Shown: positions 762 to 18,017 of the stretch, piece by piece | Position numbering within the stretch: position 1 is the stretch's first letter | Layout: every line of letters starts with the position of its first letter | NCBI RefSeq assembly: GCF_002087085.1 | Contig: NZ_MWQY01000010.1 | Coordinates: 1 to 64,000, forward strand | Reading direction: 5' to 3' | DNA: 64,000 nucleotides | The notes under the pieces: model-generated | What the model was told of the DNA's origin: nothing | Databases searched by the model: none | Seen by the model: the letters and a program-made list of their open reading frames with translations, nothing else | Translations under genes and position numbers: made by a program

Positions 762-1832
762 TCAAATGATCCCGGAAAGGGCCTCGTGGGTTTCCAGGAG
801 CATCCGTTCAGTGGCGTCCCAGCCGATACAGGCATCGGTTATGGAAACTCCGTAAATAAGCTCTGCGGGATTGCTGCCGATGGACTGGCTGCCCTCAAAG
901 AGATTGCTTTCCAGCATAAAGCCGACGACTTCGTTCAGACCCCTCCGGCGGTAGTCGGTCAGGGCCCGCAGAACCCTCTCCTGCTTGAAGGGATCTTTTC
1001 CGGAATTCATGTGGCTGCAATCGATCATAACAGCCGGATCTATCCCGCTGCCGGCGAGCATCTCCCGGGCCTCCTCCACATTCTCCTCGTAGTAATTGGG
1101 GGCGTCCCTGCCGCCCCGGAGAATTATGTGGTTATTGGGATTGCCCGTTGTGTGCAGAACACAGGTATTGCCTGCCTGGTCTATACCGATAAAACTCTGG
1201 GGATGCCGGGAAGCCTCCATGGCGTCCACTGCAAGCTTGAGATTACCGGAGGTACCGTTCTTGAAACCCACGGGCATTGAAAGACCGGAAGCCATCTGGC
1301 GGTGGGTCTGGCTCTCGGTAGTTCGCGCCCCGATTGCCGCCCAGGAAATCAGGTCGGCGATATACTGTGGGATGATCGGTTCGAGGATCTCAGACCCCAC
1401 TGGCATACCCATCTCCGTGATTTCCAGCAGGATCTGCCGGGCCTGCTTGAGTCCCTTTTCGATCTTGTAGCTTCCGTCCAGGTCGGGGTCCGTAATGAGT
1501 CCCCGCCACCCCAGCACCGTCCTGGGCTTTTCAAAATAGACCCGCATTAAAAGAAGCATACTGTCCTTTACCTTTTCCTGCAGGCCCTTCAGTCGCTCCG
1601 CGTAATCCAGGGCAACCTTTCGGCTGTGAATTGAGCAGGGACCGATGATACCGAGAAGCCGCCTGTCTTTTCCCTTCAGGATATCGACGACCTGTTTTCG
1701 GCCCGTGAAAACCGTTTCGTTGCTGGCGGGAGTAACCGGATACAACTCTTTAAGGGCTGCCGGTGAAAAGAGGGGATGGGCTTTACGTATGTGAATATCG
1801 GATAATGGATGCAGGGGACTGGCTCCAGCCAT
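762..1832 (-). CDS. 3-deoxy-7-phosphoheptulonate (DAHP) synthase, class I alpha
   Basis: GPCSIH, RVYFEKPRT, IGARTTESQTHR, GFKNGT, IDCSHMNS, GVSITDACIGW motifs. Confidence 0.95.
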   Translation of the reverse strand: MAGASPLHPLSDIHIRKAHPLFSPAALKELYPVTPASNETVFTGRKQVVDILKGKDRRLLGIIGPCSIHSRKVALDYAERLKGLQEKVKDSMLLLMRVYFEKPRTVLGWRGLITDPDLDGSYKIEKGLKQARQILLEITEMGMPVGSEILEPIIPQYIADLISWAAIGARTTESQTHRQMASGLSMPVGFKNGTSGNLKLAVDAMEASRHPQSFIGIDQAGNTCVLHTTGNPNNHIILRGGRDAPNYYEENVEEAREMLAGSGIDPAVMIDCSHMNSGKDPFKQERVLRALTDYRRRGLNEVVGFMLESNLFEGSQSIGSNPAELIYGVSITDACIGWDATERMLLETHEALSGII

Positions 1833-1952
1833 GGTTATTCCTTTCCTTGTGTTCTTATTGACAGGTACGTGGCATGGAGTATACCTGTTTTAGTATGGTA
1901 AATACAAGCATCCCGATTGCACAAGGCCGGGTCTATGGTTTACAAAAGGTAC

Positions 1953-3236
1953 ATGAGCCGATTTCTGCTGCCCCTTGCAGCCGTCCTACTCCTGTTTAGC
2001 TCCTGCACAGGTCTGCAGGAATCCACCGCCTCAGCTTCATACCCGATACGGGAGAAGCAGGAAAAGCCTGCACCCTCAGGGGAAGCAGACAGCGCGGCGG
2101 ATCAGAAAGGGGTTGCAGTAAAGCCGGAACTACCGGCAACCGCTGAAGATGAAAAGAAGCCCGAATCAGCGCCGGACCCGTTGGCTGCATACCTTGACCG
2201 GATGGACATAAAGCGACAGATCGGCCAGCTTTTTCTGGTGGAAGTACGGCACCCGGAAACCGGACAGCTCATCACAAGGATGAACGAAGCCTTCCGGGAA
2301 TGGGCCGCGGATCTTCAGCCCGGGGGATACATCCTTTTCGCCGATAATCTGAGAAATCCCCAGCAGACCAGAGAGCTGATTGCAGATCTCCAAAGCCTGA
2401 CGACTATTCCTCCCTTCATCGCCCTGGATGAGGAGGGAGGTGTGGTCAGTCGGCTCACCGCAGTTCCCGCCATGGGCGGGATCCCGGTACCATCTGCCCG
2501 GGTCATCGGTGCCTCAGGATACACAGCAAAAGCCCGGGAAGCTGCCAGAACCATTGCGAAACAACTCAAGGACCTGGGCTTCTCCGTAAACTTTGCGCCG
2601 GTGGCGGATATTCACATTCCCGGAACCGGCGGTACCATGGGTGAAAGGAGTTACGGGACCGAAGCGCAGCTGGTTTCACGGATGGCGTGCGCCTTTTCCA
2701 AAACTCTGGAAGACGAGGGAATACTCTCGGTGGCCAAACACTTTCCCGGTCACGGTGCAGCCTACGGTGATTCCCATACAGAGAAAACCGTGCTGGACGC
2801 CTCCCGGGAGATTCTGACCCGGCGGGAGATGCTTCCCTTTTCAGCACTAATAAAGCAGGGAATCGGCGGTATCATGACCGGGCACATTATCGTGCCTTCC
2901 CTCGATAATTCCGGAAAGCCTGCCAGTCTTTCCGGAATTATCAGCAGGAATCTTCTCAGGGATGAGATGGATTATAATGGACTCGTTTTTACAGACAGTC
3001 TGAGGATGGGCGGAGTTACCGCTTTTTATAATGCTGTCGAACTGCCGCTCCTGGCTTTTGAAGCCGGAGCGGATATCCTGCTGATGCCTGTAGCGGCGCT
3101 GGAATCCCGGCAAAGACTCCTGGAAGCCCTGGAGACAGGAAGAATCCCGCAGCAGAGGCTCAGGGAATCCCTCAATCGAATAGCCCTGGCCAAAAGAAAA
3201 TTCCTGTCTCCCGACGATATTACTCCATCCCCCTAA
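1953..3236 (+). CDS. GH3 beta-N-acetylhexosaminidase (NagZ-like) lipoprotein
   Basis: Lipobox LLFSSC after ATG 1953; DEEGGVV, NFAPVAD, KHFPGHG-x4-DSH, FTDSLRM motifs. Confidence 0.88.
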   Translation: MSRFLLPLAAVLLLFSSCTGLQESTASASYPIREKQEKPAPSGEADSAADQKGVAVKPELPATAEDEKKPESAPDPLAAYLDRMDIKRQIGQLFLVEVRHPETGQLITRMNEAFREWAADLQPGGYILFADNLRNPQQTRELIADLQSLTTIPPFIALDEEGGVVSRLTAVPAMGGIPVPSARVIGASGYTAKAREAARTIAKQLKDLGFSVNFAPVADIHIPGTGGTMGERSYGTEAQLVSRMACAFSKTLEDEGILSVAKHFPGHGAAYGDSHTEKTVLDASREILTRREMLPFSALIKQGIGGIMTGHIIVPSLDNSGKPASLSGIISRNLLRDEMDYNGLVFTDSLRMGGVTAFYNAVELPLLAFEAGADILLMPVAALESRQRLLEALETGRIPQQRLRESLNRIALAKRKFLSPDDITPSP

Positions 3237-4954
3237 GTACCGCCCTGGTCTTTTCCCTGGTCGGAATCATCATTTCCATGCCGGTGGAGGGCATCGTAGA
3301 GAAAGCGTTTTATTTTCTGAGTCGGCGTCTTCTCGAAAGGATCCTTCTGCTCGATAAACTTCCCGATCCTGGAGAAGCTGCTCAGGCGCGCATTCACCGA
3401 CTTTCGCAGTTCGTTCAGATACTCCCCTATCTCCCGGGGAACATCAGCGGCGGATTCGGCCATGTTGTGGAGATGCTCCTTGAAGGCGTCGTAATTAATA
3501 TGTATCCGTGCGCTCAGCTCGCCCTGGTCCTGAAACACCAGGGAGTCCTCTACGAAATCAAAGCTGTTGATAATGGACTCTATGGCCTCGGGATAGATGT
3601 TCTCGCCGCTGGGTCCCAGGATCATGTTCTTCATGCGTCCCTTTATGTACAGACGACCCTCTGCATCGAAGACCCCTAAATCCCCGGTGTGAAACCAGCC
3701 ATCCCCGTCGATTACCTCAGCGGTTCGTTTCGGATCCTTGTAATAGCCCTGCATTACGATGGGGCCCCGTACAAGGATCTCCCCCTCCCCGTTTTCCGCA
3801 TTTGGTTCTGAGATTTTAACCTCGATACCCTCGATGGGTTTACCCGTTGAGCGGGCCTTCATGTTCGGATTGTCAGCCCCGGCAATAAGGGGTGAAGTTT
3901 CCGTCAGGCCGTAGCCGATGGCATAGGGGAATCTGGCTTCGATCAGAAAATCCTCTACCTCCGGAGCAAGAGCTGCACCGCCGATACCGAAGAAATAGAG
4001 GCGTCCTCCAAAGGCCTTCCTGAGTTTCTTGCCCGCCAGCCGGTTCAGGATTATACGTCCCGGAGTTGTCCCGTGGAGACGCCGCAGCAGTGGACTCTTC
4101 CTGAAGGAGGGCAGTACACTTTGACGGTAAAGCTTCTCAATGAGCAGGGGAACCGAGAGAATCAGGTGGGGACGTACTTTTTTAAGGGCCGGCATCAGAA
4201 CCGTAGCCGACGGCGGCCGCCGCAGATAGTAAACCGCACAGCCCATAAAAAGAGGGATAATAAAACCGATGGTGCACTCATAGGTATGCGCAAGAGGAAG
4301 GATGGAGAGCATCGACTCCCCTGCCTGTATGCCGGGTATTACGCTTGTCTTTTCAGCATCAAAAATGATGTTGCGGTTTGTGAGCACCACCCCCTTGGAG
4401 TGGCCCGTCGTTCCGGAGGTATAGATAATGACTGCCGGATCATCGGGATTTCCGGTGTAGCTGAAACCCGCTTCCGGCAGAAAATCTTCTCGAGAAAGAG
4501 CCTCTGCCGCGGCGATGGATTCGCCTTCCAGGGAGCCAAGGGGCGCAAAAGAGTCTATCAGATAGAGACCCGTGTCCGGGCCACAGACGTCCGCAGCTTC
4601 CAGTTTGGGAACCATACGCTTTGAAATAAAACAGGCTTTGATCTCTGCATGTGTAAAAATGGCAGACACATCCTGAGGCGGAAAATCCGGCAGAACCGGG
4701 ACAACGATCCCTCCAGCGCGGTTTATGGCCATATAGGCAATTCCCCAGTTCGGCATATTTTCGCTCAGAAGTCCTATCCGGTCTCCGGGAGCTATTCCGT
4801 CCGAGACCAGCCGGGCGGCAAGCCGGTCCACCAGATCCGTACATTCCGAATAGCTGAGGGGCTCTTCCCCGGCAAAGCCGAGGGCGGGATAATCCGGGTA
4901 GGCCGCAGCCGTGTTGAAGAGCACATGGTTGAGCATATTCGCGTGTGTGTTCAT
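3233..4954 (-). CDS. Long-chain fatty acid--CoA ligase (AMP-binding)
   Basis: IIYTSGTTGHSKG, GYGLTE, WFHTGD, GRMKN motifs; start moved to ATG 4954 (AGGAGAAGG RBS, removes overlap with upstream gene). Confidence 0.92.
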   Translation of the reverse strand: MNTHANMLNHVLFNTAAAYPDYPALGFAGEEPLSYSECTDLVDRLAARLVSDGIAPGDRIGLLSENMPNWGIAYMAINRAGGIVVPVLPDFPPQDVSAIFTHAEIKACFISKRMVPKLEAADVCGPDTGLYLIDSFAPLGSLEGESIAAAEALSREDFLPEAGFSYTGNPDDPAVIIYTSGTTGHSKGVVLTNRNIIFDAEKTSVIPGIQAGESMLSILPLAHTYECTIGFIIPLFMGCAVYYLRRPPSATVLMPALKKVRPHLILSVPLLIEKLYRQSVLPSFRKSPLLRRLHGTTPGRIILNRLAGKKLRKAFGGRLYFFGIGGAALAPEVEDFLIEARFPYAIGYGLTETSPLIAGADNPNMKARSTGKPIEGIEVKISEPNAENGEGEILVRGPIVMQGYYKDPKRTAEVIDGDGWFHTGDLGVFDAEGRLYIKGRMKNMILGPSGENIYPEAIESIINSFDFVEDSLVFQDQGELSARIHINYDAFKEHLHNMAESAADVPREIGEYLNELRKSVNARLSSFSRIGKFIEQKDPFEKTPTQKIKRFLYDALHRHGNDDSDQGKDQGGT

Positions 4955-4962
4955 ACCTTCTC

Positions 4963-5769
4963 CTAGAGGCTTATCGTCATTTTCAGCCCGGGGACAAAGT
5001 CCCCGGTACAAAGCTCTCCCCGGTCCAGAACGCGGCAGTCCATATCCGCAGCCCGCGAAGAGGCTATACTCTCCCGGACTTTTTCCGGAGTATTGTTGTT
5101 GTGGGACAGGTGACACATAAAGACCCTGTCCGGCTTCCTTCTATTCTCGCTGATCTCGGATAGAAAATCCACTGCCTGCTGATTGGACAGGTGACCCCAT
5201 TTTGACGCGATGCGCCGTTTCAGGCTCGCCGGATAGGGTCCGCTTGACAGCATCTCGGGATCGTAATTGGCTTCAAGAAAGAGGACCCGGCTGGTGGATA
5301 CCAGGTGGAACATTTCGTCGGAGAGCTCCCCGGTATCCGTAAGAACAGTAAAGCGCTCTCCCTGAATGGAAAAACTGTAGGCCACAGGACGATCTACGTC
5401 ATGAAAGGTGGAGAAAGGAAGGCAGCTGCACCAGGAAAAACTGTGCTCCTTTCCCGGTTGCATTGTGTATAGGCCCGGCAGTTTTCCAACGGAATCAGGC
5501 AGGGTCAGACCGGAGGCGGTAAACATTGGTATCTTGAGTCTTCTGCACAGGGCCCCCGCCCCTTTCATATGGTCGCCATGGGTGTGGGTCAGGAAGAGTC
5601 CATCCACGGAATCAGGAGAAATCCCGGCCCGGTCCATCCGCGCCAGGGCCTCCCTGACGCTGAAGCCGTTGTCCACAATTACGGACCGTCCCCGGCAGGA
5701 AAAAACGTAGGCATTAGCAGAAGAGCCGCTGCCGAGAACGGCATAGCGGACCGCGTTTTTTTCCGTCAA
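4963..5769 (-). CDS. MBL-fold metallo-hydrolase (YycJ/WalJ/PhnP-like)
   Basis: LGSGSSAN, THTHGDH, HD, TDTG, EANYD, GHLSN, HLS motifs. Confidence 0.88.
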   Translation of the reverse strand: MTEKNAVRYAVLGSGSSANAYVFSCRGRSVIVDNGFSVREALARMDRAGISPDSVDGLFLTHTHGDHMKGAGALCRRLKIPMFTASGLTLPDSVGKLPGLYTMQPGKEHSFSWCSCLPFSTFHDVDRPVAYSFSIQGERFTVLTDTGELSDEMFHLVSTSRVLFLEANYDPEMLSSGPYPASLKRRIASKWGHLSNQQAVDFLSEISENRRKPDRVFMCHLSHNNNTPEKVRESIASSRAADMDCRVLDRGELCTGDFVPGLKMTISL

Positions 5770-6110
5770 CGTTCTTGCTCGATCCAGGCCTGCCAGGTTT
5801 CCAGGGCAAGGCCGATGGTTGCGTCTTTTCCGTTCCGGACAACCGGCGTTTTTAAAAGCAGTGGGTTCTCAAGAACTTCTTCTTCGGGATCAAATTCCAT
5901 ATAAGCCATTCCCTTGTCCTTGTAAGCCCTGCTCTCGGGATCGACAAGATTATCCCGCCCAACAGCCCGGGCAATATTCGATAGCTCCCCGGGGGAGATG
6001 CCCTTCTCCCTGAGGTCTACCTGATGGGGAGTAATACCCCGTTCCTTGAAAAACCTGACCGCCTTCTGGGTGTTCTTGCACTTCTTTGTGCCGAATATCT
6101 GAATTGTCAT
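5766..6110 (-). CDS. ArsC/Spx-family (YffB-like) protein
   Basis: IQIFGTKKCKNTQKA and LLKTPVVR motifs, 114 aa. Confidence 0.85.
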   Translation of the reverse strand: MTIQIFGTKKCKNTQKAVRFFKERGITPHQVDLREKGISPGELSNIARAVGRDNLVDPESRAYKDKGMAYMEFDPEEEVLENPLLLKTPVVRNGKDATIGLALETWQAWIEQER

Positions 6111-6142
6111 ACAGCTGTATCCTCTATATAAGGATTAGGGAG

Positions 6143-6171
6143 AGAATATCAGTCTGTGAAGGGGATTACAA
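6143..6171 (-). promoter_or_regulatory. Putative sigma70 promoter for the ArsC-MBL-ligase operon
   Basis: Minus strand TTGTAA-17 nt-TATTCT about 30 nt upstream of ATG 6110. Confidence 0.5.
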
Positions 6172-6409
6172 GGCGCCAAAGGAAGACTAGTCCTTCTTCC
6201 AGGACCGTTCCGGCAGCTTCATGACCTAGAATCATTGGCTCCCGGACAACAAAGGGTCCGATTTTACCGTGCTGGTAGTAGTGAATATCGCTTCCGCAGA
6301 TACCCACCGCCCCGACGGCGATTCGGACATCCCGTGGACCCAGTTCTTCCTGTATGTCCACGTCCTGAAGGGAAATTTCACCCTTCTTTTGTAAAACCAG
6401 CGCCTTCAT
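6149..6409 (-). pseudogene. Truncated Zn-dependent polyol (sorbitol/xylitol) dehydrogenase, N-terminal ~73 aa only
   Basis: MKALVL...[13 protein letters not shown]...[12 protein letters not shown] then similarity stops and an early stop follows; good GGAGG RBS; family normally about 340 aa. Confidence 0.85.
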
Positions 6410-6422
6410 GGTCTCCTCCCTC

Positions 6423-7724
6423 TTATTTTTCTCCCCTGGCCAGGGCTACATGGCTGTCCGCCATCTCATATCCCGCCGCCTGGGCACAGGCAGTGTTCAG
6501 GTCCAGGGCGGCAACGGCGGTGCAGCAGATCTCCGCCAGGCGCTTTACATTTTCGTTATCATCAGGACTGGTGCCGATTTCTCCACAGCCGAGAAGCTTG
6601 AGGGCCTCCCGGGCAGTACCGAAGTTTGTCCCTCCGCCGATGGTCGCGATCTCCAGGGAGGGCATGGAAACCATGAAGTGGAGTCCCCCCTCCACGGCGT
6701 CGGCCTGGACAAAGGCGGCGGAGCTCGAGACGACATGGGCCATGTCCTGGCCGGTGGCGGCGAAAAACGCAGCCAGCGCATTGGCGGCGTTTACATTGAA
6801 ACCGCTTATGGTTCCGCTCAAGGTGGAGCCCAGATAACACTTATGAAAAACCACCCGCTCAACACTCCTGCTGGTCACCCCTTTCTTGAAAACCTTCTGG
6901 AGGACCTCTTCGGGAACAAAGACCTCGGCATGAACGCTTTTTCCCCGGCCCTGCAGTATGTTGATATGGGAAGCCTTTTTATCGGTACACAGGTTGCTGG
7001 ATATGGTTATGAGCTTCCAGCCCTCCAGATCCTTCAGAATCCTCCGGGCGATATCGGCGGAGGCCTTGGTAACGCCGTTCATTCCCATGGCATCGCCGGT
7101 CTTGCAGACCATCCTGAGGAAGACTTTTGTTCCCAGCTGATAGGGTTCGATATATTCCAGGCGGACGAAGGGGTCTTTAATCTCCTTGTTCAGCTCCTGT
7201 ATCAGATCCCTGTCCTCCTGGACACGGATACAGAATTTTTTGGCGGCGTCGATATCGGGGGCCTCCAGGAGGGGCGCCCTGCTCATTCCGTCAAAGGTCA
7301 CCTGGGTACGGATTCCCCCCGACATGTTTATGGCCTTGACACCCCGCTGCACTCCGGCGACAAGAGCAGCTTCGTTGGTTGCCAGGGGAAGGTAGTATTC
7401 GCCTTTTGCATACTCCCCGCTGATTTTAACCGGTCCGGCCAGTCCCATGGGTATCAGGGCGGCCCCGACCTTCATTTCAATTCCCGTAAGAAGGTGCCCC
7501 TCCGAGAGTCCGGAGTTATCCAGCCTCGAGTTTTTAATCAGATCGAGGCTGACGCCGGTGCTTTCTTCCGCGACGGAGCAGCGAATCCGGGCTGCATCAT
7601 GACAGGCATCCTGAAGACGGGATGCATCGGAATCATATACCTCGTTAAATATCATTGTCTCCAGATGCTGCTGCTTTATTTCACCTTCAGCAAACCTGTC
7701 CTTTATTTCTTTGAGCTTGTCCAC
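6423..7724 (-). CDS. hmgA: 3-hydroxy-3-methylglutaryl-CoA reductase, class I (archaeal-type)
   Basis: [14 protein letters not shown] (catalytic Glu), [20 protein letters not shown] (catalytic Lys), TGQD (Asp), IGGGT, C-terminal His; AGGAGG RBS before GTG. Confidence 0.92.
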
Positions 7725-7737
7725 CCTTTACCTCCTT

Positions 7738-8628
7738 TTAAGCCGTGTGTTCGTAGGCACTCAATCCTTTTGCAAAGTCTCCGGCCTTCGTAATTTTCTC
7801 AAGATCTATACCGGTTTCAAGCCCCAGACGGTGCAGCATGTCCACCAGGGTTTCGGTAGCTATGTTTCCCGTAGCCCCCGGCGCATAGGGGCAGCCCCCG
7901 AGTCCCCCGGCGGCGGAGTCGATTACATCGATACCTGCCTGGAGGGAGACGAGCACATTGGCAAACTCGATCCCCGAAGCCCGATGAAAATGGGCCGCAA
8001 GGCTCGCTTTTTTAAGCTGTTCCCGGACCCTGCTGCCCACCTCGTAGGCAGAAACCGGCCCGGCCATCCCGGTGGTGTCCCCCAGGGATATCTCGTAGGA
8101 GCCGTACTCCTCCAGCTTCTTCGCGATATCAACAACCTTTTCTACCGGTATTGCCCCCTCCATGGGGCATCCGTAGGCGGTCCCGATGTATGATCTGACA
8201 CGTACCCCGTGGGAGGCGGCGTATTCATTTATCCTCTTCATCTCTTCCAGGGATTCTGCGACACTCATGTTCAGGTTCTTGGTATTGTGACTCTCGCTGG
8301 AACTCATGATGGTAACGACTTCCTTCAAACCGGCGTCAACAGCGCGTTCCAGTCCCTTGAAATTGGGGATCAGGGCGTTGTAGGTGATTCCCTCCCGCCG
8401 ACTTATTCCATTCAGTACATCCACGGCATCCGCCATCTGGGGGACCCACCGGGGATGTACAAAACTTGTTACCTCGATGCGGCGGCACCCCGCGTCCTGC
8501 AGCATCTCCACAAGCCTGATCTTGTCGCCGGTGGCAATAAAATCCGGTTCATTCTGCAGACCGTCCCTGGGACCCACCTCAAAGATGCTTACCTTTTTAA
8601 AATCAATATGGAGATCCGACAATCCCAT
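7738..8628 (-). CDS. Hydroxymethylglutaryl-CoA lyase
   Basis: EVGPRDGLQNE, TSFVHPRWVPQMAD, EISLGDTTG, HFH, GLGGCPYAPGATGNIATE motifs. Confidence 0.92.
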   Translation of the reverse strand: MGLSDLHIDFKKVSIFEVGPRDGLQNEPDFIATGDKIRLVEMLQDAGCRRIEVTSFVHPRWVPQMADAVDVLNGISRREGITYNALIPNFKGLERAVDAGLKEVVTIMSSSESHNTKNLNMSVAESLEEMKRINEYAASHGVRVRSYIGTAYGCPMEGAIPVEKVVDIAKKLEEYGSYEISLGDTTGMAGPVSAYEVGSRVREQLKKASLAAHFHRASGIEFANVLVSLQAGIDVIDSAAGGLGGCPYAPGATGNIATETLVDMLHRLGLETGIDLEKITKAGDFAKGLSAYEHTA

Positions 8629-8706
8629 CTAAATCCTCCCTGTTGTAAGGCATTCTAAAACTGCCCTTCTTCAGAATGCTACTATCATTATCCTGCTGAC
8701 GCAATT

Positions 8707-8805
8707 CTATAATGTAAAACCGCCGTCGATTGTCAGAGTCTGGCCGGTTACAAATCCTGCAGAACACAGAAGATCGATAATCACTTCGGCCACATCCCGA
8801 CGGGC
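8707..8805 (-). pseudogene. C-terminal remnant of a short-chain dehydrogenase/reductase (SDR)
   Basis: Manual translation ARRDVAEVIIDLLCSAGFVTGQTLTIDGGFTL* matches the classical SDR C-terminus (FVTGQxxxxDGG); no start, begins about 10 nt after the GntR stop. Confidence 0.8.
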
Positions 8806-8815
8806 TTTAAACCAA

Positions 8816-9463
8816 TCAGATCATACTATCGCTATGATAGATGTGTTCCCGCATAACCTCTTCCGCAATAAGAGGATCTCTGGTTCGCAGTGCATCGATC
8901 AGGCAGTGGTGATTGTCCTTGGGAATCTGATTCTTATGTTCCGTCGCACTGTACTGGGCGCGCTGCAGCAGCCTGAACAGGTTTATTCGGTGGAGTGAAT
9001 CGATAAGAGACTGATGCCCGGTTTTTCTGGCCATGATCATGTGCATCTCGAAGTGGAGTTCCCAGAACTCCTCTCCCTCGGTATCCCCTGCCTGCTCCAT
9101 GGCGTCCAGCTTATTCGCCAGCTTTTCCAGGTCGGCGATTTCATCTTCCGTGAGGGTGCGTGTAATGATACGCATAACCTGACATTCGATGGCCTCCCTG
9201 AGGGCATACCAGTCCCTGACTTTCTCCTTGGTGATCGGAACAACCCTGGAACCGCGGTAGGGAATGGACTCTACGATGCCGAGGGCCTCGAGGCGCAGCA
9301 GGGCTTCCATTACCGGAATCGTGCTGACCCCTGTCTTTTCAGCGAGCTTGCGACGTATAAGTTTTTCTCCGGGTTTCAGCTGTCCGGTAAGAATCATGTC
9401 AAAAATCTTTTCATAGGCCTTGTCAGAAGAACTCCGAAAATCGTCCTCAACTTCTATAAGCAT
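8816..9463 (-). CDS. GntR/FadR-family (FCD domain) transcriptional regulator
   Basis: N-terminal wHTH (LKPGEKL...LAEKTGVSTIPVMEAL) and FCD with FxxLHFEMH, H...MREHI. Confidence 0.92.
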   Translation of the reverse strand: MLIEVEDDFRSSSDKAYEKIFDMILTGQLKPGEKLIRRKLAEKTGVSTIPVMEALLRLEALGIVESIPYRGSRVVPITKEKVRDWYALREAIECQVMRIITRTLTEDEIADLEKLANKLDAMEQAGDTEGEEFWELHFEMHMIMARKTGHQSLIDSLHRINLFRLLQRAQYSATEHKNQIPKDNHHCLIDALRTRDPLIAEEVMREHIYHSDSMI

Positions 9464-9576
9464 CGCATTGCTCCATCGGAAATCTGGTAAATCCGTATCC
9501 GTAAATCTACGATAAATAATATATCAGATATACCATAGATTTTACAAGTTTTTTTTATCCGGAAGAACAAACAATG

Positions 9577-9624
9577 AAAAAAGGGGATTTTATGCCTCAA
9601 ATTCGAGACACAATCCCCGTTTTT
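9577..9624. terminator. Hairpin flanked by A and T runs; probable terminator of the former GH43 gene
   Basis: AAAAAAGGGGATT...AATCCCCGTTTTT inverted repeat just downstream of the minus-strand stop at 9671. Confidence 0.5.
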
Positions 9625-9670
9625 CCATTTCAGGTTCCCATAAGAAGTATAAAAACTGTTTTTGAAGTAA

Positions 9671-9937
9671 TCAATCCTGTTTTACATCTCTATACTCAAA
9701 ATAATCAAAGTCGGCATACAGACGTTCCCCTGACAGGTCCTGACAACACAGCCCGGAAAAGGCCCCGGTAAAACTGTTTCGCTGCATATATTCATCCGAA
9801 AGCACCTTTGAATCCAGGTCAGGACCGATCTGCTGCCAGTCCCCGGCTGAACCATAAGAGTAAAAGAAGCGAAGTATATCGCCATCGATCTCTGCCCTTA
9901 GCCCTGCGACATGCTCTCCTTTACCGGCCTCGACCAT
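9671..9937 (-). pseudogene. C-terminal remnant of GH43 beta-xylosidase (beta-sandwich domain)
   Basis: FFYSY...WQQIGPDLD...LSDEY...FTGAFSGLCCQD...ADFDYFEY is the typical XynB/GH43 C-terminus; catalytic propeller absent. Confidence 0.85.
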
Positions 9938-10090
9938 CGCCGGATCGTGGAGCCCGGGGATTTTGAGCTCATGCTCGGTACATCCTGCAGGGATATTGCG
10001 TATCGTTCCAGGATATCACTGTACGGCGAGACACGTTATCCGGGAAAGTACTGGTCCATGGAGAGCGCTGTGGAAATCCTGAGGGAGTAA
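9938..10090 (+). pseudogene. C-terminal remnant of GH3 beta-glucosidase/xylosidase (FnIII domain end)
   Basis: Manual translation RRIVEPGDFELMLGTSCRDIAYRSRISLYGETRYPGKYWSMESAVEILRE* matches the GH3 FnIII motif VEPGxFxxxxGxSS. Confidence 0.75.
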
Positions 10091-10139
10091 AGGAATTATA
10101 AGTATGTGCGGGTATTATGCCATGCTATAATACCCGCAA

Positions 10140-11126
10140 ATGAAAGCTCCCATGGAAAAATCCCTGCTCTTTATCTTCAGCTCCCTGTTTATAATCTCTT
10201 TTATCCTTTCCATTAATGCTATAGTCGATCTTTCGAGCCTGACATCCGGCAGCGAGGAAACGGAAACAGCGGATTACCATTTTGCTTTCTTTCTGCCCAG
10301 GGAGTTTTACAGCTTTTTCCGTTCCGTGGCCAGCGGGGCGCAGGAAGCAGCGGAGGAAATGGACTGCGCCTTATCCTTTCATACCATTGGAAACGATTCC
10401 CTGGATCTTGAAATGGCCCGCTTCTCCGGAATCGACGGAGTAGTCCTTTACCCGAGCATCAACGAGGAAGAGGCCCGAAGGATTCTTGACGAGTTTGATG
10501 ATTCCGGCATATCCGTAGTGCTCATAGAGCATACCCTGTCGGACAGCTCCCCATGGCCTTTTGTGGGAACCAATAATTTCGATATCGGAAAAAAAATCGG
10601 AAACCTCATCAAGTCCCGCTCAGGCTCCCCCCTTCAGATCGCTGTGGTCTACTCGATGAAGTCCCCGGGAATCTACGCGGAAAAGGACCTGGTCGGACTG
10701 GGAATAACCTCGACCCTGGGGCCCCTGCTGGAAACACCCCTGGAAAGCCGGATTACAAATCTGAATCCCCTGGACGCGGAAGAGCTGACCTACGAGATGC
10801 TGCTGAACGAACCCTGGATATCCACCATTGTATTTACTGACACCAGCGATACCCTGGCGGCGACCCAGGTGCTTATCGACATGAATATGGTGGGCACCGT
10901 ACGGCTGATCGGATTCGGAACGGAGGATGCAATCCTGGATTACGTGGAAAAAGGTATTCTCGAGGCTACCATCGCTACAAATCCCTGGGATATCGGCTAC
11001 AACGCCGTAAAGGTCCTGGTCAAGCAGCAGAGCGAGGGACACATGCCCGGCTATGTGGATACGGGAGTCGAAATTGTAACGGAACGGAACGTCGACCGTT
11101 TCAGGAAAAACGGGAGCAGACGGTGA
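10140..11126 (+). CDS. Membrane-anchored periplasmic sugar-binding (type I SBP) protein associated with a two-component system
   Basis: N-terminal hydrophobic helix, FVGTNNFDIG, LIGFG, GYVDTGVEIV; overlaps the kinase start (GTGA). Confidence 0.8.
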   Translation: MKAPMEKSLLFIFSSLFIISFILSINAIVDLSSLTSGSEETETADYHFAFFLPREFYSFFRSVASGAQEAAEEMDCALSFHTIGNDSLDLEMARFSGIDGVVLYPSINEEEARRILDEFDDSGISVVLIEHTLSDSSPWPFVGTNNFDIGKKIGNLIKSRSGSPLQIAVVYSMKSPGIYAEKDLVGLGITSTLGPLLETPLESRITNLNPLDAEELTYEMLLNEPWISTIVFTDTSDTLAATQVLIDMNMVGTVRLIGFGTEDAILDYVEKGILEATIATNPWDIGYNAVKVLVKQQSEGHMPGYVDTGVEIVTERNVDRFRKNGSRR

Positions 11127-12604
11127 GAGAATCCCTGCGGCTGCAGCTTTTCCTGAATATCTTTCTGGGACTGGGAATTATCGTCATATCCATGTCCTAC
11201 ACCTTTTACAGTTCCATGAAAATCCAGACCATTGTGAACAGCCAGTTCCGCAAAGAGCAGTTTTATCAGAAACTGCAGTATGAGATCTCCGAAGTCAGGG
11301 GACCTCTTCTGGATTATCTTTCCAGCAGATCATCCAAAGCCCTGGCCGCCCTCCTGATCCAGGAACAGACCCTCAGGAACATGGTACCCGAACAGACGCC
11401 GGTATATAAAAGTTCGTACCGTCTGGCGGAGCGGGAAATCTTCTTCATGCTCACAAACTACCTCGATATGGTGGAACAGGCCATCAACATGAAACGAGGC
11501 CGGGCCATAAACGAATACACCCAGATTTATGAAGATATGGAAAAGATGAACGCCCACATCGCCCGAAGAATCGACAGCATCAGCCTCTCGGGAATTCGGG
11601 AACAGCTCACCGCCTATGAATCTGTAATAGAAGCTTCCCGGGTTCTCCAGTTCCATAATCTGCTGACAATTATCTTCGCCTTTCTGTTTTCCATAACCTG
11701 GATGCTCTTTTCCATCAGCAAGGTTACGAACCCCATGCACCGCCTGGCCCAGATGGCAGAAGAACTCTCCACCGGCAACTTCGACATACCGGATATCCAT
11801 ATTTCCTCCGTCACCGAGGTCAGCGCCGTTGTCGAGGCCTTTAACAACATGAAAAACGATATCCGCCGCTACATAACTGAGATACAGCGGCAAAAAAGCA
11901 TCGAACAGGGATACATGAACGAGAAACTGCGGAACATGAAAATGGAGCAGCTCCTGAAACGCATGGAGCTGTATACCATGCAGGCTCAGATGAATCCCCA
12001 CTTTCTGTTCAATACGATAAATACGGGTGTACAGCTTGCAATCATCGAGAATGCCGACAAGACCGCGGCCTTTATGGAAAACCTGGCCACCTTTTTTCGT
12101 CACAATATACGGGAGCGCAAGCTTATCGTTCCCCTTCGCCACGAGATTGAAGGCCTGAGGTCCTATTTTTATATTCTGGAAATCCGTTTCCCCCACACCT
12201 ACTCCTTCAGCCTGGATGTTCAGGAGGACATCCTCGATACCTGTTCCATTCCCGCCCTGATTCTGCAGCCCCTGGTGGAGAATTCCATCATCCATGCCTT
12301 CAAGGGAGCCCACACCGGTGGAGAGATAGGTGTCAGGGTAAGGAAAGAAGAGAATATGCTTCTGCTGTCGGTCAGGGATAACGGGTCAGGCATACCCCGG
12401 GAAGTCAGCGACTCTCTTTTAAAGCGCTATACCCGGGACCAGGAACATACATCCAAGGTAATGGGTCTCGAGAATGTTATCCAGCGGCTCTACTTCTTTT
12501 ATCCCCGAAACAGAGAGGTTATTTCCATTGAGAGCGAAACCCATACAGGCACGGAGATTATCATCCGGATTAACCTGGAGGAAGAACCATGTATAAAGTT
12601 ATGA
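11123..12604 (+). CDS. YesM/LytS-type sensor histidine kinase
   Basis: Two TM helices, HAMP, QMNPHFLFNTIN, LQPLVENSIIH, DNGSG, MGLENV. Confidence 0.92.
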   Translation: MRESLRLQLFLNIFLGLGIIVISMSYTFYSSMKIQTIVNSQFRKEQFYQKLQYEISEVRGPLLDYLSSRSSKALAALLIQEQTLRNMVPEQTPVYKSSYRLAEREIFFMLTNYLDMVEQAINMKRGRAINEYTQIYEDMEKMNAHIARRIDSISLSGIREQLTAYESVIEASRVLQFHNLLTIIFAFLFSITWMLFSISKVTNPMHRLAQMAEELSTGNFDIPDIHISSVTEVSAVVEAFNNMKNDIRRYITEIQRQKSIEQGYMNEKLRNMKMEQLLKRMELYTMQAQMNPHFLFNTINTGVQLAIIENADKTAAFMENLATFFRHNIRERKLIVPLRHEIEGLRSYFYILEIRFPHTYSFSLDVQEDILDTCSIPALILQPLVENSIIHAFKGAHTGGEIGVRVRKEENMLLLSVRDNGSGIPREVSDSLLKRYTRDQEHTSKVMGLENVIQRLYFFYPRNREVISIESETHTGTEIIIRINLEEEPCIKL

Positions 12605-14100
12605 TCGTTGATGATGAAGAGCCGGTTCTGGAAAGTTTTTCCTACATGGTGGAAACATCCTCCGATTCTTTCTCCGTCTGCGGCAAGGCACGCACGGGTT
12701 TCGAGGCCATATCCATGGCCTACAACTGCAGTCCGGATATCGTTTTCATGGATATCGGAATGCCGGGAATCGACGGCCTGGACACCATCAAGGAGCTGCA
12801 GCGCAACCATCCGGCAACCCTATTTATCCTCTCCACAGCCTACGAACGTTTTGATATTGCAAAAAGAGCAATTCCCCTCAAGGTATTCGACTATCTGGTA
12901 AAACCTATTTCCCGCAGCAGGTTTCTTGAAACCCTCATGAAGGCAAAACAGCATCTGGATGAACAGACCGAGATTGCCGCCGCCAGACTGGACAAGGCGC
13001 GGATATCAGCCGATTCAATGAGCTGGGAGGAGCGGAATTTCCTGCTTCTGATCAGCTGGAAAAGCCTGACAAAAAGGGAATGGGAAAAATACAAACTGCT
13101 CTTTTCTCTTGAATCCGATCAGGCGAGGGTCTTTGTGTTCCGTATCGAGGGACCCGAGGCGGAAGCACTGTCGGGAATCCACAGGGAGATTCACCGCAAG
13201 ATAAGCCACAAGTATCAGATACTCTCCACCGAATATCTGGGAAGTACGCTGATCTTCCTGCCCGGAGACGAGGAAACCCGGCGGCTGCAAGACTTTCTCG
13301 ATCTTGTTTTTACCCAGGTTCTCCCCTCCAATGCACAGGTACAAAAAGGACTCGGCGGGCAGCATTCCTATGAAGAATTCTTTCGCTCCTGCGAGGAGGC
13401 CCTGCGGGCCCTCAGAGAGAACGATGAGCGGGATACCGGCAGGCACGAGGACTGGGAGGAACTGGGAGAACTTCGAAGTGCCATCGCCAGAGCCGCCTCC
13501 TTTGAGGATATCCAGGAGCCTTTTACATCGTACTACGAAAAGGTATTTTCCTCTTCTCCTTTTCCCGTGGCAAAATCGAGAATAATCGCCTTCTTTACCC
13601 TGCTCCTTGACGATTTCTACCGCTCCCTGGGTAAAAAGGCTGCCCGCTATATTCTCTTTGATCCTGCCGCCGAGATTACCCCCATCAACGCCAGGAAGGA
13701 TCTTGATGCCTGGATCTGGAGGTCCCTGCGAACCCTGATGGAGGCCGAACATCAGCACATGGAAAAAAACCTTCCCGCGGTACTGACCCGGGCTCTGTAC
13801 TACATCCAGGGGAATTACGACCGGCCCCTTCAGCTCACGGATGTGGCTGACTTTTGCGGGGTATCTTCAAGCTATATGAGCAGACTCTTTACAGAGCAGC
13901 TCAGTATCTCTTTTATTGATTACCTGACCTCCGTTCGGCTGAAGGTGGCGGAGGAATTACTGCTGGAAAACCGCCTTCCCATAAAGGAAATAGCCTGCAG
14001 TGTCGGATACCAGGACCCCAATTACTTCAGCAGGATTTTTCGGAAACAAAAGGGCTTTTCTCCAAGCACCTATCTTCAGGAGCATAGCGATGAAAAATAG
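12589..14100 (+). CDS. YesN-type response regulator (REC + AraC HTH)
   Basis: VDDE, MDIGMP, YLVKP; C-terminal AraC VGYQDPNYFSRIFRK. Confidence 0.93.
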   Translation: MYKVMIVDDEEPVLESFSYMVETSSDSFSVCGKARTGFEAISMAYNCSPDIVFMDIGMPGIDGLDTIKELQRNHPATLFILSTAYERFDIAKRAIPLKVFDYLVKPISRSRFLETLMKAKQHLDEQTEIAAARLDKARISADSMSWEERNFLLLISWKSLTKREWEKYKLLFSLESDQARVFVFRIEGPEAEALSGIHREIHRKISHKYQILSTEYLGSTLIFLPGDEETRRLQDFLDLVFTQVLPSNAQVQKGLGGQHSYEEFFRSCEEALRALRENDERDTGRHEDWEELGELRSAIARAASFEDIQEPFTSYYEKVFSSSPFPVAKSRIIAFFTLLLDDFYRSLGKKAARYILFDPAAEITPINARKDLDAWIWRSLRTLMEAEHQHMEKNLPAVLTRALYYIQGNYDRPLQLTDVADFCGVSSSYMSRLFTEQLSISFIDYLTSVRLKVAEELLLENRLPIKEIACSVGYQDPNYFSRIFRKQKGFSPSTYLQEHSDEK

Positions 14101-15142
14101 GATACCCGGAATATTTTCCCTTCTGATTCTCCTGATGCTTCTATTCTCCTGCAGCAGGGCACAGAAAGAGGATGCCGGAATGGCTGACCGGAGAATCATC
14201 ATTGGTTTCTCCATTGCCACGGATACATTCATTCTTGAACGATGGAACAAGGACATCAAGATCTTTACCGGAGCGGCAAAGGAGCTGGGTGCGGAGGTTC
14301 TTTTCCAGCTCTCCGCAGGGGGAACCAGGGCGCAGATCGACCAGATTCGCTACCTTCTGAAACAGGACATCGATATTCTGGTTGTGCTGCCCCATGATAC
14401 ATCCATGCTGGCCGGTGTCATCAAGGAGGTCAACGATCAGAAAATTCCGGTTATCGCCTACGACCGACTGATTCAGGGAGTACCGATATCCGCCTACGTA
14501 TCCTTCGATAATGTGGAAGTCGGCAGGCTCTTCGGAAGGGCCCTCACCCGGAAGGTACCCCGGGGAAAATATCTGATCGTAAACGGATCGGTGAGGGACA
14601 ATAACAGTTACCTGGTAAACCAGGGTTTGCACGAGATTCTGGATCCCTACATAGAATCCGGCGCGGTTTCCATTGTGGACGAGATCTGGCTCGAGCAGTG
14701 GAGCGGAGACGAAGCCACCGCTCGGATAAGTGAAATACTGGAAAGGACCACCGATATAGACGCCATATCCGCCGGGAACGACCAGCTTGCAAACTCTGCG
14801 ATTCAACTCCTCGCAGAACGGCGTCTGGCAGGAAAGGTCGCTGTAGTCGGACAGGATGCCGATCTGCTTTCATGTCAGCGGGTTGTTGAGGGCTTGCAGC
14901 TCATGACGGTATATAAGCCCATCAGCAGGCTTGCCACCCGTGCAGCCCAGATATCCGTCGCCATTGCCCGGGGAGAAGCTCCCGAGCCTGACAGACTGGT
15001 GGAGAATGGAAGCAATACCACAATCCCCTACTTTGTCGAGATGCCGCGGGCAGTTTTCAAGGATAATATGGAAGAAACCATAATCAAAGACGGATTTCAT
15101 TCAGCGGAAGATATTTATAGAAACAGATCAAGAGAAAATTGA
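14090..15142 (+). CDS. XylF-like sugar-binding lipoprotein
   Basis: ATG 14090 with lipobox LLFSC; ERWNKD, IAYDRLI, VSFDN, GQDADL, TVYKP motifs. Confidence 0.88.
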   Translation: MKNRIPGIFSLLILLMLLFSCSRAQKEDAGMADRRIIIGFSIATDTFILERWNKDIKIFTGAAKELGAEVLFQLSAGGTRAQIDQIRYLLKQDIDILVVLPHDTSMLAGVIKEVNDQKIPVIAYDRLIQGVPISAYVSFDNVEVGRLFGRALTRKVPRGKYLIVNGSVRDNNSYLVNQGLHEILDPYIESGAVSIVDEIWLEQWSGDEATARISEILERTTDIDAISAGNDQLANSAIQLLAERRLAGKVAVVGQDADLLSCQRVVEGLQLMTVYKPISRLATRAAQISVAIARGEAPEPDRLVENGSNTTIPYFVEMPRAVFKDNMEETIIKDGFHSAEDIYRNRSREN

Positions 15143-15278
15143 CATCAATATTCTGCTATCCGGTTCAGCGAAATTAGTCCCCATAAAAAAAATAGACAGA
15201 CATTGTAATAAGAATCCTGTATCGAAGCATTGGAAGCGATCATACAATTAAGAAAACATATTCTATAAGGAGAGTTGT

Positions 15279-16358
15279 ATGAAAAATGCTCTACGAATCG
15301 GAGTTCTCTGTGTACTGCTGGTTCTGCTTGCTTTTCCGATCTTCGCCGCCGGCGGACAGGAAGAGGGGACGGCCAAAAAGGTCGGAATCCTCATGCCGAC
15401 CAAATCTCTGCAGAGATGGAACCAGGATGGTCAGTACCTGAAATCTAAACTTGAAGCCAAAGGCTACAAGGTCGATCTTCAGTATGCCAACAACCAGGTT
15501 GCCACTCAGGTTTCTCAGCTGGAAAACCTCGTCACCGCCGGGAACAAAATCCTGGTAATCGCTTCCATCGACAGTACCGCCCTTAAAGGCGCTCTGGCAC
15601 AGGCGAAAAGTGAGGGCTGCCTGGTAATCGCCTACGACCGTCTGATTATGGATACAGAAAACGTAGACTATTACGCTACCTTCGACAACTATAAAGTAGG
15701 CACGCTTCAGGGCAATTTTATTGTTGAGGAGCTGGGACTCAAGAGCGGAAAAGGTCCGTACAACCTTGAGGTATTCGGCGGCTCCCCGGATGATAACAAC
15801 GCCTACCTTTTCAATCAGGGTGCCATGGACCAGCTGCAGCCCTACATCGACAAGGGCCAGCTCGTGATAAATTCCGGCCAGACTGAAATGAGTGTCATAG
15901 CAATATCTGCCTGGAAAGCCGAAGGCGCTCAGGCCCGTATGGATAACCTTCTTACCGCTTACTATGCCGACAAGAAAGTTGACGTTGTTCTTTCCCCCAA
16001 CGACAGTCTTGCCCAGGGAATCGTGGCATCCCTTAAATCAGCAGGCTACGGCACTGCATCAAAACCGTATCCGGTCCTTACCGGCCAGGACTGCGACAAA
16101 ATCAACGTAAAAATGATGATCAACGGCGAACAGTCAATGTCCGTGTTCAAGGATACCAGAACCCTTGCAGAACGGGTGGTTACCATGGTGTCGGAAATAG
16201 GCGAAGGCAAAAAGGTTACCGTCAACGATACTGAATCCTACGACAACAATGTAAAGGTTGTTCCATCATTCCTGTGTGATCCGGTTTTTGCCGACAAGAA
16301 CAATTACAAGGAACTTCTGATTGATTCCGGATATTACACCATTGATGAAATAATGTAG
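15279..16358 (+). CDS. chvE: Multiple monosaccharide ABC transporter substrate-binding protein
   Basis: [49 protein letters not shown] motifs. Confidence 0.9.
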
Positions 16359-16378
16359 ACCTGACTCTATTTTTCTCA

Positions 16379-16417
16379 ATAACCGGTACAGCTGCCAGGA
16401 GCGTCTGTACCGGTTAT
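16379..16417 (+). other. Intercistronic stem-loop after the SBP gene
   Basis: Perfect 13-bp stem ATAACCGGTACAG / CTGTACCGGTTAT; typical mRNA stabilizer or attenuator between SBP and ATPase genes. Confidence 0.65.
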
Positions 16418-16434
16418 ATAAAGGATTCAAGCAC

Positions 16435-17973: not shown

Positions 17974-18017
17974 GGCCTGCGGAGAAAACAGAAGAAAACC
18001 AGGAGAGGTATCCTACG

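Follow-up and report, generated by a model that had tools for sequence, protein, structure and literature searches.

The first 64,000 nucleotides (nt) of contig NZ_MWQY01000010.1, the whole stretch of DNA analysed here and called the window below, carry two adjacent genes for homologues of HMG-CoA (3-hydroxy-3-methylglutaryl-coenzyme A) lyase and of class I HMG-CoA reductase (HMGR). The two proteins probably form the enzymatic core of a catabolic module without prior description, in which a polyhydroxy acid resembling mevalonate would be oxidised, joined to CoA and cleaved. This reading draws on the conserved pairing of the two genes in other genomes, on the pathway context of their hosts, on the residue pattern of the reductase homologue and on the genes that recur around the pair. 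At the window locus itself, the pair is the remnant of a ~20-kb glycan/sugar-acid cluster that was reduced by two recent deletions.

The HMG-CoA-lyase-like gene (7738-8628, minus strand) encodes 296 amino acids (aa) and matches PF00682 (HMGL-like) with 179.3 bits. It is followed by the HMG-CoA-reductase-like gene of class I type (6423-7724, minus strand), which encodes 433 aa from a GTG start and matches PF00368 over residues 46-429 with 304.8 bits, compared to a gathering cut-off of 27. The lyase stop codon and the reductase start codon are separated by 13 nt (7725-7737). A GntR/FCD regulator gene (8816-9463, minus strand) encodes a protein of 215 aa with an N-terminal GntR winged helix (PF00392, 56.9 bits) and a C-terminal FCD domain (PF07729, 67.9 bits); it reaches no NCBIfam equivalog, the best being phnR_burk at 93 bits versus a cut-off of 271.5. 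An initial annotation, made from the letters of the window, had described three co-oriented genes, the 13-nt gap and intact catalytic motifs, and all of the open reading frames (ORFs) and quoted motifs were recovered in the translations, on the minus strand throughout. It had also proposed a reductase phylogeny, a search for class I reductase-lyase pairs in other genomes and an inventory of isoprenoid pathway genes, the outcomes of which are given below.

Related loci were gathered from genomes (71 loci) and metagenomes (80 loci), and pairing was scored by tblastn using one reference protein per family. A lyase located no more than 300 nt upstream on the same strand was counted as paired in the 63 genome loci with at least 950 nt of upstream sequence; eight further genome loci were left out of this count, being too short upstream or without a full reductase match. 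The lyase gene lies directly upstream of a reductase of the same clade (described below) in 62 of these 63 loci, the one miss being the sister sequence L071. Among metagenome loci of the clade the pairing was observed in 5 of 7, with L103 and L105 as the exceptions; L101 and L102 appear to duplicate the contigs of L023 and L024 and are not independent of them. As a control, 59 loci of other class I reductases (no more than 45% identity) were inspected, and a lyase was found anywhere in the flanks of none (0/59). The association of a class I reductase with an HMG-CoA lyase gene is accordingly conserved well beyond the window.

The departures from the usual arrangement are of several kinds. In L071, a Thermodesulfobacteriota metagenome-assembled genome (MAG), no lyase is found within 3.2 kb upstream of the reductase. 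A zinc-dependent alcohol dehydrogenase (Zn-ADH) gene lies directly upstream of the reductase in L103, an RraA-like gene occupies that position in L018, and in L105 the lyase lies 1.9 kb downstream. In the Desulfuromonadaceae MAG locus L072 (6020-8714) the match to the reductase is confined to residues 181-436 and adjoins the lyase gene's end; the gene is either N-terminally truncated or affected by an assembly fault; a second lyase paralogue, 39% identical, lies upstream, and a GntR gene and the TctBAC genes of a tripartite tricarboxylate transporter (TTT) lie downstream. Cultured carriers of the pair include Ruminiclostridium cellobioparum DSM 1351 and R. cellobioparum subsp. termitidis CT1112.

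The reductase is not part of a mevalonate pathway. Spread over 79 contigs, the 4.2-Mb genome is 97% complete and contains a single PF00368 gene, and profile searches of the genome returned neither an HMG-CoA synthase (best 36 bits versus 360) nor a mevalonate kinase (best 68 bits versus 163) over cut-off. Genes of the methylerythritol phosphate (MEP) pathway were detected over cut-off, namely Dxr with 386 bits and IspH with 257 bits. In five other clade-carrying genomes mvaS was over cut-off in none and Dxr in four. A full mevalonate biosynthesis pathway relying on this reductase, which the initial annotation had named as evidence against its own reading, is therefore not what the genome encodes.

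The reductase belongs to a well-delimited bacterial clade. A word-indexed search returned 935 proteins at E <= 0.001 among 8000 candidates scored, and the best 120 of these 935 homologues are 66-100% identical to the window protein and 431-456 aa long. The matches listed come from Spirochaetes, Clostridia, Planctomycetota and Alphaproteobacteria MAGs, with Marispirochaeta, Treponemataceae, Spirochaetales, Mahella, Ruminiclostridium and Planctomycetes among the source names, and many of their labels read 'hypothetical' or 'HMG-CoA reductase (NADPH)'. An exhaustive search of 50%-identity representatives gave 2802 matches at E <= 0.001, with identity falling from 68% to 48% or less past the clade; the nearest sequences outside it, from Micrarchaeota and Woesearchaeota MAGs, Methanohalophilus and Acidilobus, are 42-48% identical. 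In a quick IQ-TREE analysis of 59 rows the clade was recovered with an SH-aLRT of 100 on a stem of 0.49, the Thermodesulfobacteriota sequence L071 (51% identical) was placed as its sister with a support of 98, and clade and sister together were nested (99) among DPANN-type archaeal class I sequences. The distribution is patchy: among 40 related genomes, strong reductase matches were found in three of five same-genus genomes and in one other genome, G024.

Family scores agree with this placement. The reductase scores 318.3 bits against the NCBIfam class I model TIGR00533 (NADPH equivalog, EC 1.1.1.34), below its cut-off of 441.8, and 37 bits against the class II degradative model TIGR00532 (mvaA type), below its cut-off of 259.95. 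Its best solved relative is the archaeal class I enzyme 6hr7 with 235 bits, followed by plant (214) and human (193) enzymes. The class I model, the best structure and the nesting among archaeal enzymes all bear out the archaeal-type class I assignment made at the outset.

Active-site residues of 12 clade rows were compared with those of 36 other class I rows and of the 8 nearest archaeal rows. Numbering follows the human enzyme by way of the 1dq8 alignment, and the contact lists are those in the available text of PMC7503714. The equivalents of the catalytic residues E559, K691, D767 and H866 (E118, K249, D327 and H425) are invariant in all 12 clade rows, and the cis-loop (S242...K250) is kept. 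The HMG contacts S684, D690, K692, K735 and N755, together with R590, and the CoA contacts R568 and S865 are likewise invariant (12/12), while K722 is Lys in 11 rows and Arg in one. The available text of PMC7503714 lists ten residues for the HMG pocket (S684, D690, K691, K692, D767, E559, K735, N755, L853 and H866), of which nine are kept and L853 is changed. At this position Thr (T411) is found in 12 of 12 clade rows, compared to Leu in 31 of the 36 other class I rows and in 8 of 8 nearest archaeal rows. The nearby L857 is replaced by Gln (Q415) in 12/12 clade rows, a position occupied by Leu in most other class I rows and by Gln in some.

The second set of changes affects the dinucleotide site. 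S626 and R627, given as NADPH contacts in the available text of PMC7503714, are replaced by Asp (D184) and Pro (P185), respectively, in all 12 clade rows. At the first position the other rows carry Ser or Thr in 32 of 36 cases and otherwise Ala or Gly, with Asp in 2/36; at the second, Arg is present in 18 of 36. The sister L071 shares the Pro and has Gly and Leu at the positions of the clade Asp184 and Thr411. Class I HMG-CoA reductases use NADPH exclusively according to the available text of PMC13488460, and the replacement of Ser-Arg by Asp-Pro would be the change expected when NADP is given up for NAD.

The lyase was assigned with a score of 382.6 bits to the NCBIfam HMG-CoA lyase model NF004283, above the cut-off of 246. 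It aligns without gaps over ~275 residues to both Bacillus subtilis YngG (1ydo, 290 bits) and human HMGCL (2cw6, 280 bits). Residues R21, D22, E52, H213, H215, C246 and N255 correspond to human R41, D42, E72, H233, H235, C266 and N275 and are all kept; we take these to include the catalytic Arg-Asp pair, the metal-binding His-x-His and Asn residues and the Cys of the G-loop. An LGDTTG motif is invariant across 51 clade lyases, compared to DTIG in both solved lyases.

Partner genes were counted in those 36 genome loci whose flanks extend for 6 kb or more to either side of the pair; to be scored, a gene had to reach 35% identity and 50% coverage to a single representative. A Zn-ADH or short-chain dehydrogenase/reductase (SDR) is present in 31 of these loci, a PCC-domain protein in 23, a CUT1 substrate-binding protein and a D-2-hydroxyacid dehydrogenase in 16 each and an RraA-like gene in 15. 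Less frequent partners are a Hyi-like TIM barrel (13), GH2, GFO/IDH/MocA and a second TIM barrel (10 each), glycerate kinase (9) and a GH140 apiosidase-like gene (7). Split transketolase genes are found in 2 of the 36 and are absent from the window locus. No CoA ligase or CoA transferase occurs among the recurrent partner families of the pair, which leaves the reductase homologue as the one conserved means of adding CoA. The commonest Clostridial gene order begins with AraC, PCC, the binding protein, two permeases, an RraA-like gene and a threonine-dehydrogenase-like Zn-ADH, continues with lyase and reductase, and ends with TIM barrel, 2-hydroxyacid dehydrogenase and glycerate kinase. The Hyi-like TIM barrel matches no NCBIfam equivalog, the only match listed being IolO at 30 bits. 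For the PCC protein, a look-up in the ESM Atlas returned unnamed PCC-domain clusters only, and a literature search for DUF296 returned plant AHL papers only.

Carboxylate-type importers accompany the pair in several loci. DctPQM genes of a tripartite ATP-independent periplasmic (TRAP) transporter lie directly upstream of it in L052 and L078, the TTT system of L072 lies downstream, and BP_6-type ATP-binding cassette (ABC) systems are present at L016 and L038. The best solved matches of the TRAP binding proteins are 4pc9 for L078 (176 bits) and 4ovt for L052 (217 bits); these are structures that we take to be aldonate complexes, an assumption that was not used as evidence. In L052 a URO-D-family gene (5708-6787) lies between the TRAP permease and the lyase. 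In other genomes, GntR/FCD regulators often recur beside the pair. The same-genus genome G005, whose reductase is 66% identical, has the native order HpcH-type aldolase gene, GntR, one unassigned ORF, GntR/FCD, lyase and reductase, with a convergent Zn-ADH gene. The HpcH/HpaI-type aldolase gene that heads this unit (L094, 14064-14834, minus strand) belongs to a family that includes 2-keto-3-deoxy sugar-acid aldolases and hints at sugar-acid chemistry.

These neighbourhoods bear on the direction in which the pair works. In a reductive or biosynthetic role, the lyase would condense and the reductase would pull the product toward a mevalonate-like diol acid that serves as an electron sink or a precursor. 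Every class I enzyme studied works reductively, as far as the available text of PMC13488460 goes, and the carriers, being fermenting anaerobes, have a need for electron sinks. The neighbours, however, are importers, glycosidases and regulators of catabolic type (AraC, GntR), there is no kinase or decarboxylase of a mevalonate route, and the Asp-Pro pair at the NADPH contact speaks against an NADPH-driven reductase. Such a route would also use up acetyl-CoA, from which fermenters make ATP, and we regard it as highly improbable.

The original surroundings of the window pair are preserved in same-genus genomes. Positions 6197-8797 of the window (2.6 kb) are 92% identical at the DNA level to G004, and the reductase is 98% identical to the G004 protein and 91% identical to that of G002. 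One end of the block shared with G004 lies inside an SDR gene (8797-8799) and the other inside a Zn-ADH gene. Both flanks are collinear: window 1039-6176 corresponds to G004:C10:19000-24137, and window 8805-9904 corresponds to G004:C10:43924-45024, the latter lying past the first GH140-like gene. Between these flanks G004 holds ~19.8 kb. The cluster comprises, in order, a GH140-like gene, a CUT1 binding protein, two permeases, a second GH140-like gene, a PCC-domain protein, SDR, lyase, reductase and Zn-ADH, then a second GntR and a GH2 gene on the opposite strand, and last the second ABC importer together with a PCC-like and a TIM-barrel gene. The same cluster is carried by G002.

Two blocks of this cluster are missing from the window. 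Deletion 1 removed ~8.8 kb containing the rest of the Zn-ADH gene, the second GntR, GH2, the second ABC importer, the PCC-like gene and the TIM-barrel gene; deletion 2 removed ~8.4 kb containing most of the SDR gene, PCC, a GH140-like gene, the two permeases, the binding protein and the other GH140-like gene. The first left a Zn-ADH 5' stub of 71 codons (6197-6409, minus strand), L-idonate-5-dehydrogenase-like, which matches only the N-terminal part of ADH_N and shares 96% identity with residues 1-73 of the G004 protein of 344 aa; its ORF continues beyond the homology to 6149. The second left the 3' end of the SDR gene, ~30 codons and a stop (8707-8799, minus strand), the frame of which reads RDVAEVIIDLLCSAGFVTGQTLTIDGGFTL followed by the stop codon and matches the C-terminus of the 245-aa SDR of L010. 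The former SDR and polyol dehydrogenase partners suggested by the initial annotation are real gene stubs.

Assemblies of public sequencing runs capture both states of the locus. A contig from run X1 spans window 5700-9700 collinearly with 34 differences and represents the deleted form. In run X7 ('organism A'), a single 29.6-kb contig carries the full cluster, in which three window segments are found at ~99% identity, separated by 8.78 kb and 8.375 kb. The junction of deletion 1 lies at 6177-6204, where synteny with G004 breaks; the 8.78 kb of run X7 fall between window 6204 and 6197, and the two sides overlap by 8 nt (6197-6204) in the full-length strain, which constitutes a microhomology. 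The junction of deletion 2 lies at 8799-8808, where 8375 letters intervene in run X7, a block that is also present in G004 and G002; eight window letters at this junction match neither side of the 8375-nt block.

The GntR gene of the window is the original flank of the whole cluster, and its adjacency to the lyase gene was made by the ~8.4-kb deletion. The three-gene module under a GntR regulator described in the initial annotation is accordingly a product of that deletion. The original feed route is lost here along with the importers, glycosidases and dehydrogenases, which left the flanking GntR gene joined to the pair. A tblastn search of the genome (E <= 1e-10) found no other homologue of the GH140-like genes, of the first cluster binding protein or of GH2.

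There is somewhat less than an even chance that the pair is a non-functional relic in this genome, its genes looking intact simply because too little time has passed since the deletions for them to decay. The full cluster in a ~99%-identical strain and the missing replacement, in the tblastn search, for the importers and glycosidases of the cluster are consistent with this explanation. Divergence from G004 points the same way. The ratio of non-synonymous to synonymous change (dN/dS) amounts to 0.027 in the reductase gene and 0.053 in the lyase gene, and the ADH stub shows the pattern of the intact genes, with 9 synonymous and 2 non-synonymous changes. Because the dead stub has the same synonymous-biased pattern, most of the divergence predates the deletions, and the intact frames therefore say little about present function. 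Against a relic stand the two open frames without a change in any catalytic residue, and the native two-gene or GntR-lyase-HMGR units elsewhere, including in the same genus.

RNA libraries add a further point against a relic. In two metatranscriptome runs, five short contigs (6200-6343, 6280-6563, 6498-6739, 8865-9053 and 9340-9538) match the 3' end of the reductase gene and the GntR gene at 99-100%; none covers the lyase or most of the reductase gene, and strand, level, variant and DNA carry-over are not distinguishable in them. A scan of 5700-10200 for promoter-like sites (6 versus 3.3 +/- 1.8 expected) and terminator-like sites (5 versus 4.5 +/- 2.4 expected) gave no usable signal on transcription of the remnant.

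For the clade as a whole, the preferred reading is the oxidative catabolic module. We infer the direction, cofactor, substrate class and products of this route from residues and gene neighbourhoods. In the first step the reductase homologue would run oxidatively and convert a mevalonate-like hydroxy-carboxylate, bearing a primary alcohol, a 3-hydroxyl and a carboxylate, together with CoA into an acyl-CoA, with two hydride transfers, probably to NAD+. In the second step the lyase would split the resulting 3-hydroxyacyl-CoA by retro-Claisen cleavage, which would give an oxo compound and a short acyl-CoA, either acetyl-CoA or glycolyl-CoA. The products of the genes that come next in many Clostridia, namely the Hyi-like TIM barrel, the D-2-hydroxyacid dehydrogenase and the glycerate kinase, would then take tartronate semialdehyde or hydroxypyruvate to phosphoglycerate. 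The acid may be imported directly, through TRAP, TTT or BP_6-type ABC systems, or be made from imported plant glycosides or oligosaccharides by means of the GH140 apiosidase-like and GH2 enzymes, CUT1 ABC importers, SDR, Zn-ADH or GFO dehydrogenases and the RraA-like and PCC proteins.

Three lines of argument lead to this scheme. The kept Lys735 and the Ser684/Lys692 carboxylate contacts, taken with the carboxylate importers, point to a hydroxy-carboxylate similar in size to mevalonate as the immediate substrate. Since the CoA contacts are kept and a CoA ligase or transferase does not recur, the reductase homologue appears to install CoA itself, and would therefore run in the oxidative direction. 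Finally, the HMG pocket has polar replacements, the partners are of sugar type and a tail of Hyi-like, reductase and glycerate-kinase genes follows, all of which speaks for a hydroxylated analogue, with tartronate semialdehyde or hydroxypyruvate rather than acetoacetate as the oxo product.

The leading, though unproven, substrate candidate is a branched or pentonate-type sugar acid, such as a derivative of apiose. A 4-deoxypentonate could give 3,4-dihydroxyglutaryl-CoA and then acetyl-CoA and tartronate semialdehyde, a 3-deoxy-isoapionate could give acetyl-CoA and hydroxypyruvate, and pentonates could give glycolyl-CoA and tartronate semialdehyde. D-apionate would share with mevalonate the tertiary carbinol with a one-carbon branch. 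The sequence singles out none of 4-deoxypentonate, 3-deoxy-isoapionate, D-apionate, pentonates and 2-hydroxymevalonate. One specific version of the scheme would be a fifth, CoA-dependent route for apiose or apionate, in which an NAD+-dependent class I reductase oxidises an apiose-derived or pentonate-type acid to its thioester and the lyase splits this to a short acyl-CoA and a C3 or C2 oxo acid; the residue and partner patterns are compatible with it, and we consider it possible but unlikely.

Genuine mevalonate catabolism, in which (R)-mevalonate would be converted through HMG-CoA to acetoacetate and acetyl-CoA as by the mvaAB enzymes of Pseudomonas mevalonii, was the first proposal of the initial annotation. 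Its general part, a class I enzyme recruited together with a lyase for oxidative catabolism, fits the neighbourhoods; mevalonate itself fits less well, and the hydroxylated or branched analogue offered there as the alternative fits better, judging from the partner genes and the pocket changes. The replacements at L853 and L857 in every clade row compared, a TIGR00533 score far under the equivalog cut-off, and recurrent partners that comprise glycosidases, sugar importers and a tartronate-semialdehyde/hydroxypyruvate-to-glycerate module all speak against mevalonate, and no acetoacetate-utilising CoA-transferase or thiolase was found among the recurrent clusters. In its favour, mevalonate biosynthesis genes over cut-off are missing from this genome, and some genomes carry the pair by itself, others next to carboxylate importers. 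On balance, mevalonate is an improbable substrate.

Several observations weigh against the sugar-acid module. The HMG contacts other than L853 and the catalytic Glu, Lys, Asp and His are kept, and the lyase aligns without gaps to solved HMG-CoA lyases, shares ~50% identity with one of them and exceeds the NCBIfam cut-off, all of which would be compatible with genuine mevalonate and HMG-CoA chemistry. S626 and R627, which we take to bind the 2'-phosphate, are listed in PMC7503714 only as NADPH contacts. The partner genes vary: GH140-like genes accompany only 7 of the 36 full-flank loci, and the pair lies among unrelated genes in L014, L021, L062 and L065. The partner counts are underestimates, the gene calls in related loci are crude ORF picks and most of these loci are MAG contigs. 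The root of the tree is insecure, as the intended class II outgroup (the small-genome spirochaete matches G010 and G022) did not fall on one side of a branch. Lastly, the remnant may work on its own, as the native GntR-lyase-HMGR unit of G005 suggests.

The remaining features of the window are ordinary or lie apart from the pair. An 88-aa ORF at 9671-9937 (minus strand) matches only the C-terminal part of a GH43 beta-xylosidase C-terminal domain (profile positions 131-203 of 203) and is probably another gene fragment; as it falls mostly within the block collinear with G004 (to 9904), it would be older than both deletions. An acyl-CoA ligase ORF at 3233-5116 (minus strand), called from its first GTG, overlaps a metallo-beta-lactamase-fold ORF at 4963-5769 (minus strand) by ~150 nt, and its true start is probably further downstream. 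This ligase clustered with one encoded near the R. cellobioparum loci; as it is only 32% identical and of generic FadD type, the match was treated as a coincidence. A sugar-sensing set at 10140-19274 (plus strand) consists of a sensor resembling binding proteins, a kinase of His_kinase type, a response regulator of AraC type and another binding protein, followed by a multiple-monosaccharide ABC importer of ChvE/GguA/GguB type that scores above NCBIfam cut-offs; the set is ordinary and shows a saccharolytic setting. A URO-D-family gene is located far from the pair at 62075-63205 (minus strand).

The clade departs from both established roles of its family. Class I reductases are described as NADPH-only biosynthetic enzymes in the available text of PMC13488460, and the textbook catabolic pair uses a class II enzyme. 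Its members lie in operons for sugars and sugar acids in dozens of species, Clostridia and Spirochaetes among them, and the clade points to a plant-glycan or sugar-acid pathway that would yield acyl-CoA directly, and its annotation as 'HMG-CoA reductase (NADPH)' would wrongly imply a mevalonate pathway. If the proposal is correct, fermenters would gain a thioester, and hence ATP, straight from alcohol oxidation, and in its less likely apiose version the clade would contain the first oxidative, NAD-linked class I HMGR, taking part in an energy-conserving anaerobic breakdown of a branched plant sugar. The cultured R. cellobioparum carriers make the question testable, and near-identical strains with either the full cluster or only the two core genes constitute a natural experiment. 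No description of a class I HMGR-lyase pairing was found in the full-text literature, a search whose coverage excluded subscription journals and bioRxiv supplements.

The closest functional parallel is mvaAB of P. mevalonii. As in that system, reductase and lyase genes are adjacent and co-oriented in what would be one transcription unit, the host does not make isoprenoids via mevalonate, and the proposed logic is the same, a primary alcohol being oxidised to a CoA thioester before retro-Claisen cleavage. The reductase of mvaAB is class II and NADH-specific according to the available texts of PMC7503714 and PMC13488460, whereas the present one is class I; the gene order here is lyase then reductase, the partners are sugar and sugar-acid genes, and the HMG pocket is altered (L853T). 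Archaeal class I reductases such as 6hr7 share the fold and family, the lack of a membrane domain, a similar length, the cis-loop and the catalytic residues, at 42-48% identity. They are biosynthetic NADPH enzymes of the mevalonate pathway, in contrast to a bacterial, lyase-linked clade in MEP hosts that carries D184, P185, T411 and Q415 in place of Ser/Thr, Arg, Leu and Leu. With the HMG-CoA lyases 1ydo and 2cw6 the lyase shares the DRE-TIM metallolyase fold, metal ligands, catalytic Arg-Asp and G-loop Cys, and it differs in being coupled to an HMGR-like gene, not to leucine or ketone-body genes, and in reading LGDTTG for DTIG.

Two sugar pathways also invite comparison. E. coli has a module leading from tartronate semialdehyde to glycerate, encoded by hyi, glxR/garR and glxK/garK. 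Many Clostridial loci have a similar module directly after the HMGR gene, made up of a Hyi-like TIM barrel, a reductase and glycerate kinase; the reductase here is a D-2-hydroxyacid dehydrogenase and not of GarR type, and neither the window nor the Spirochaete loci carry such a module. The apiose routes share with the present loci a branched-chain plant sugar, GH140 apiosidase-like genes (7 of 36 related loci) and split transketolase genes (2 of 36). We know of no HMGR- or lyase-type step for apiose. Four D-apiose/D-apionate routes, one through transketolase and three oxidative ones via ApnO, are given in the available text of PMC13753588, which summarises Carter et al. 2018; no CoA step is described there, the words CoA and RraA being absent from that text, and it is in the proposed CoA-dependent cleavage that the reductase-lyase pair would differ from these routes.

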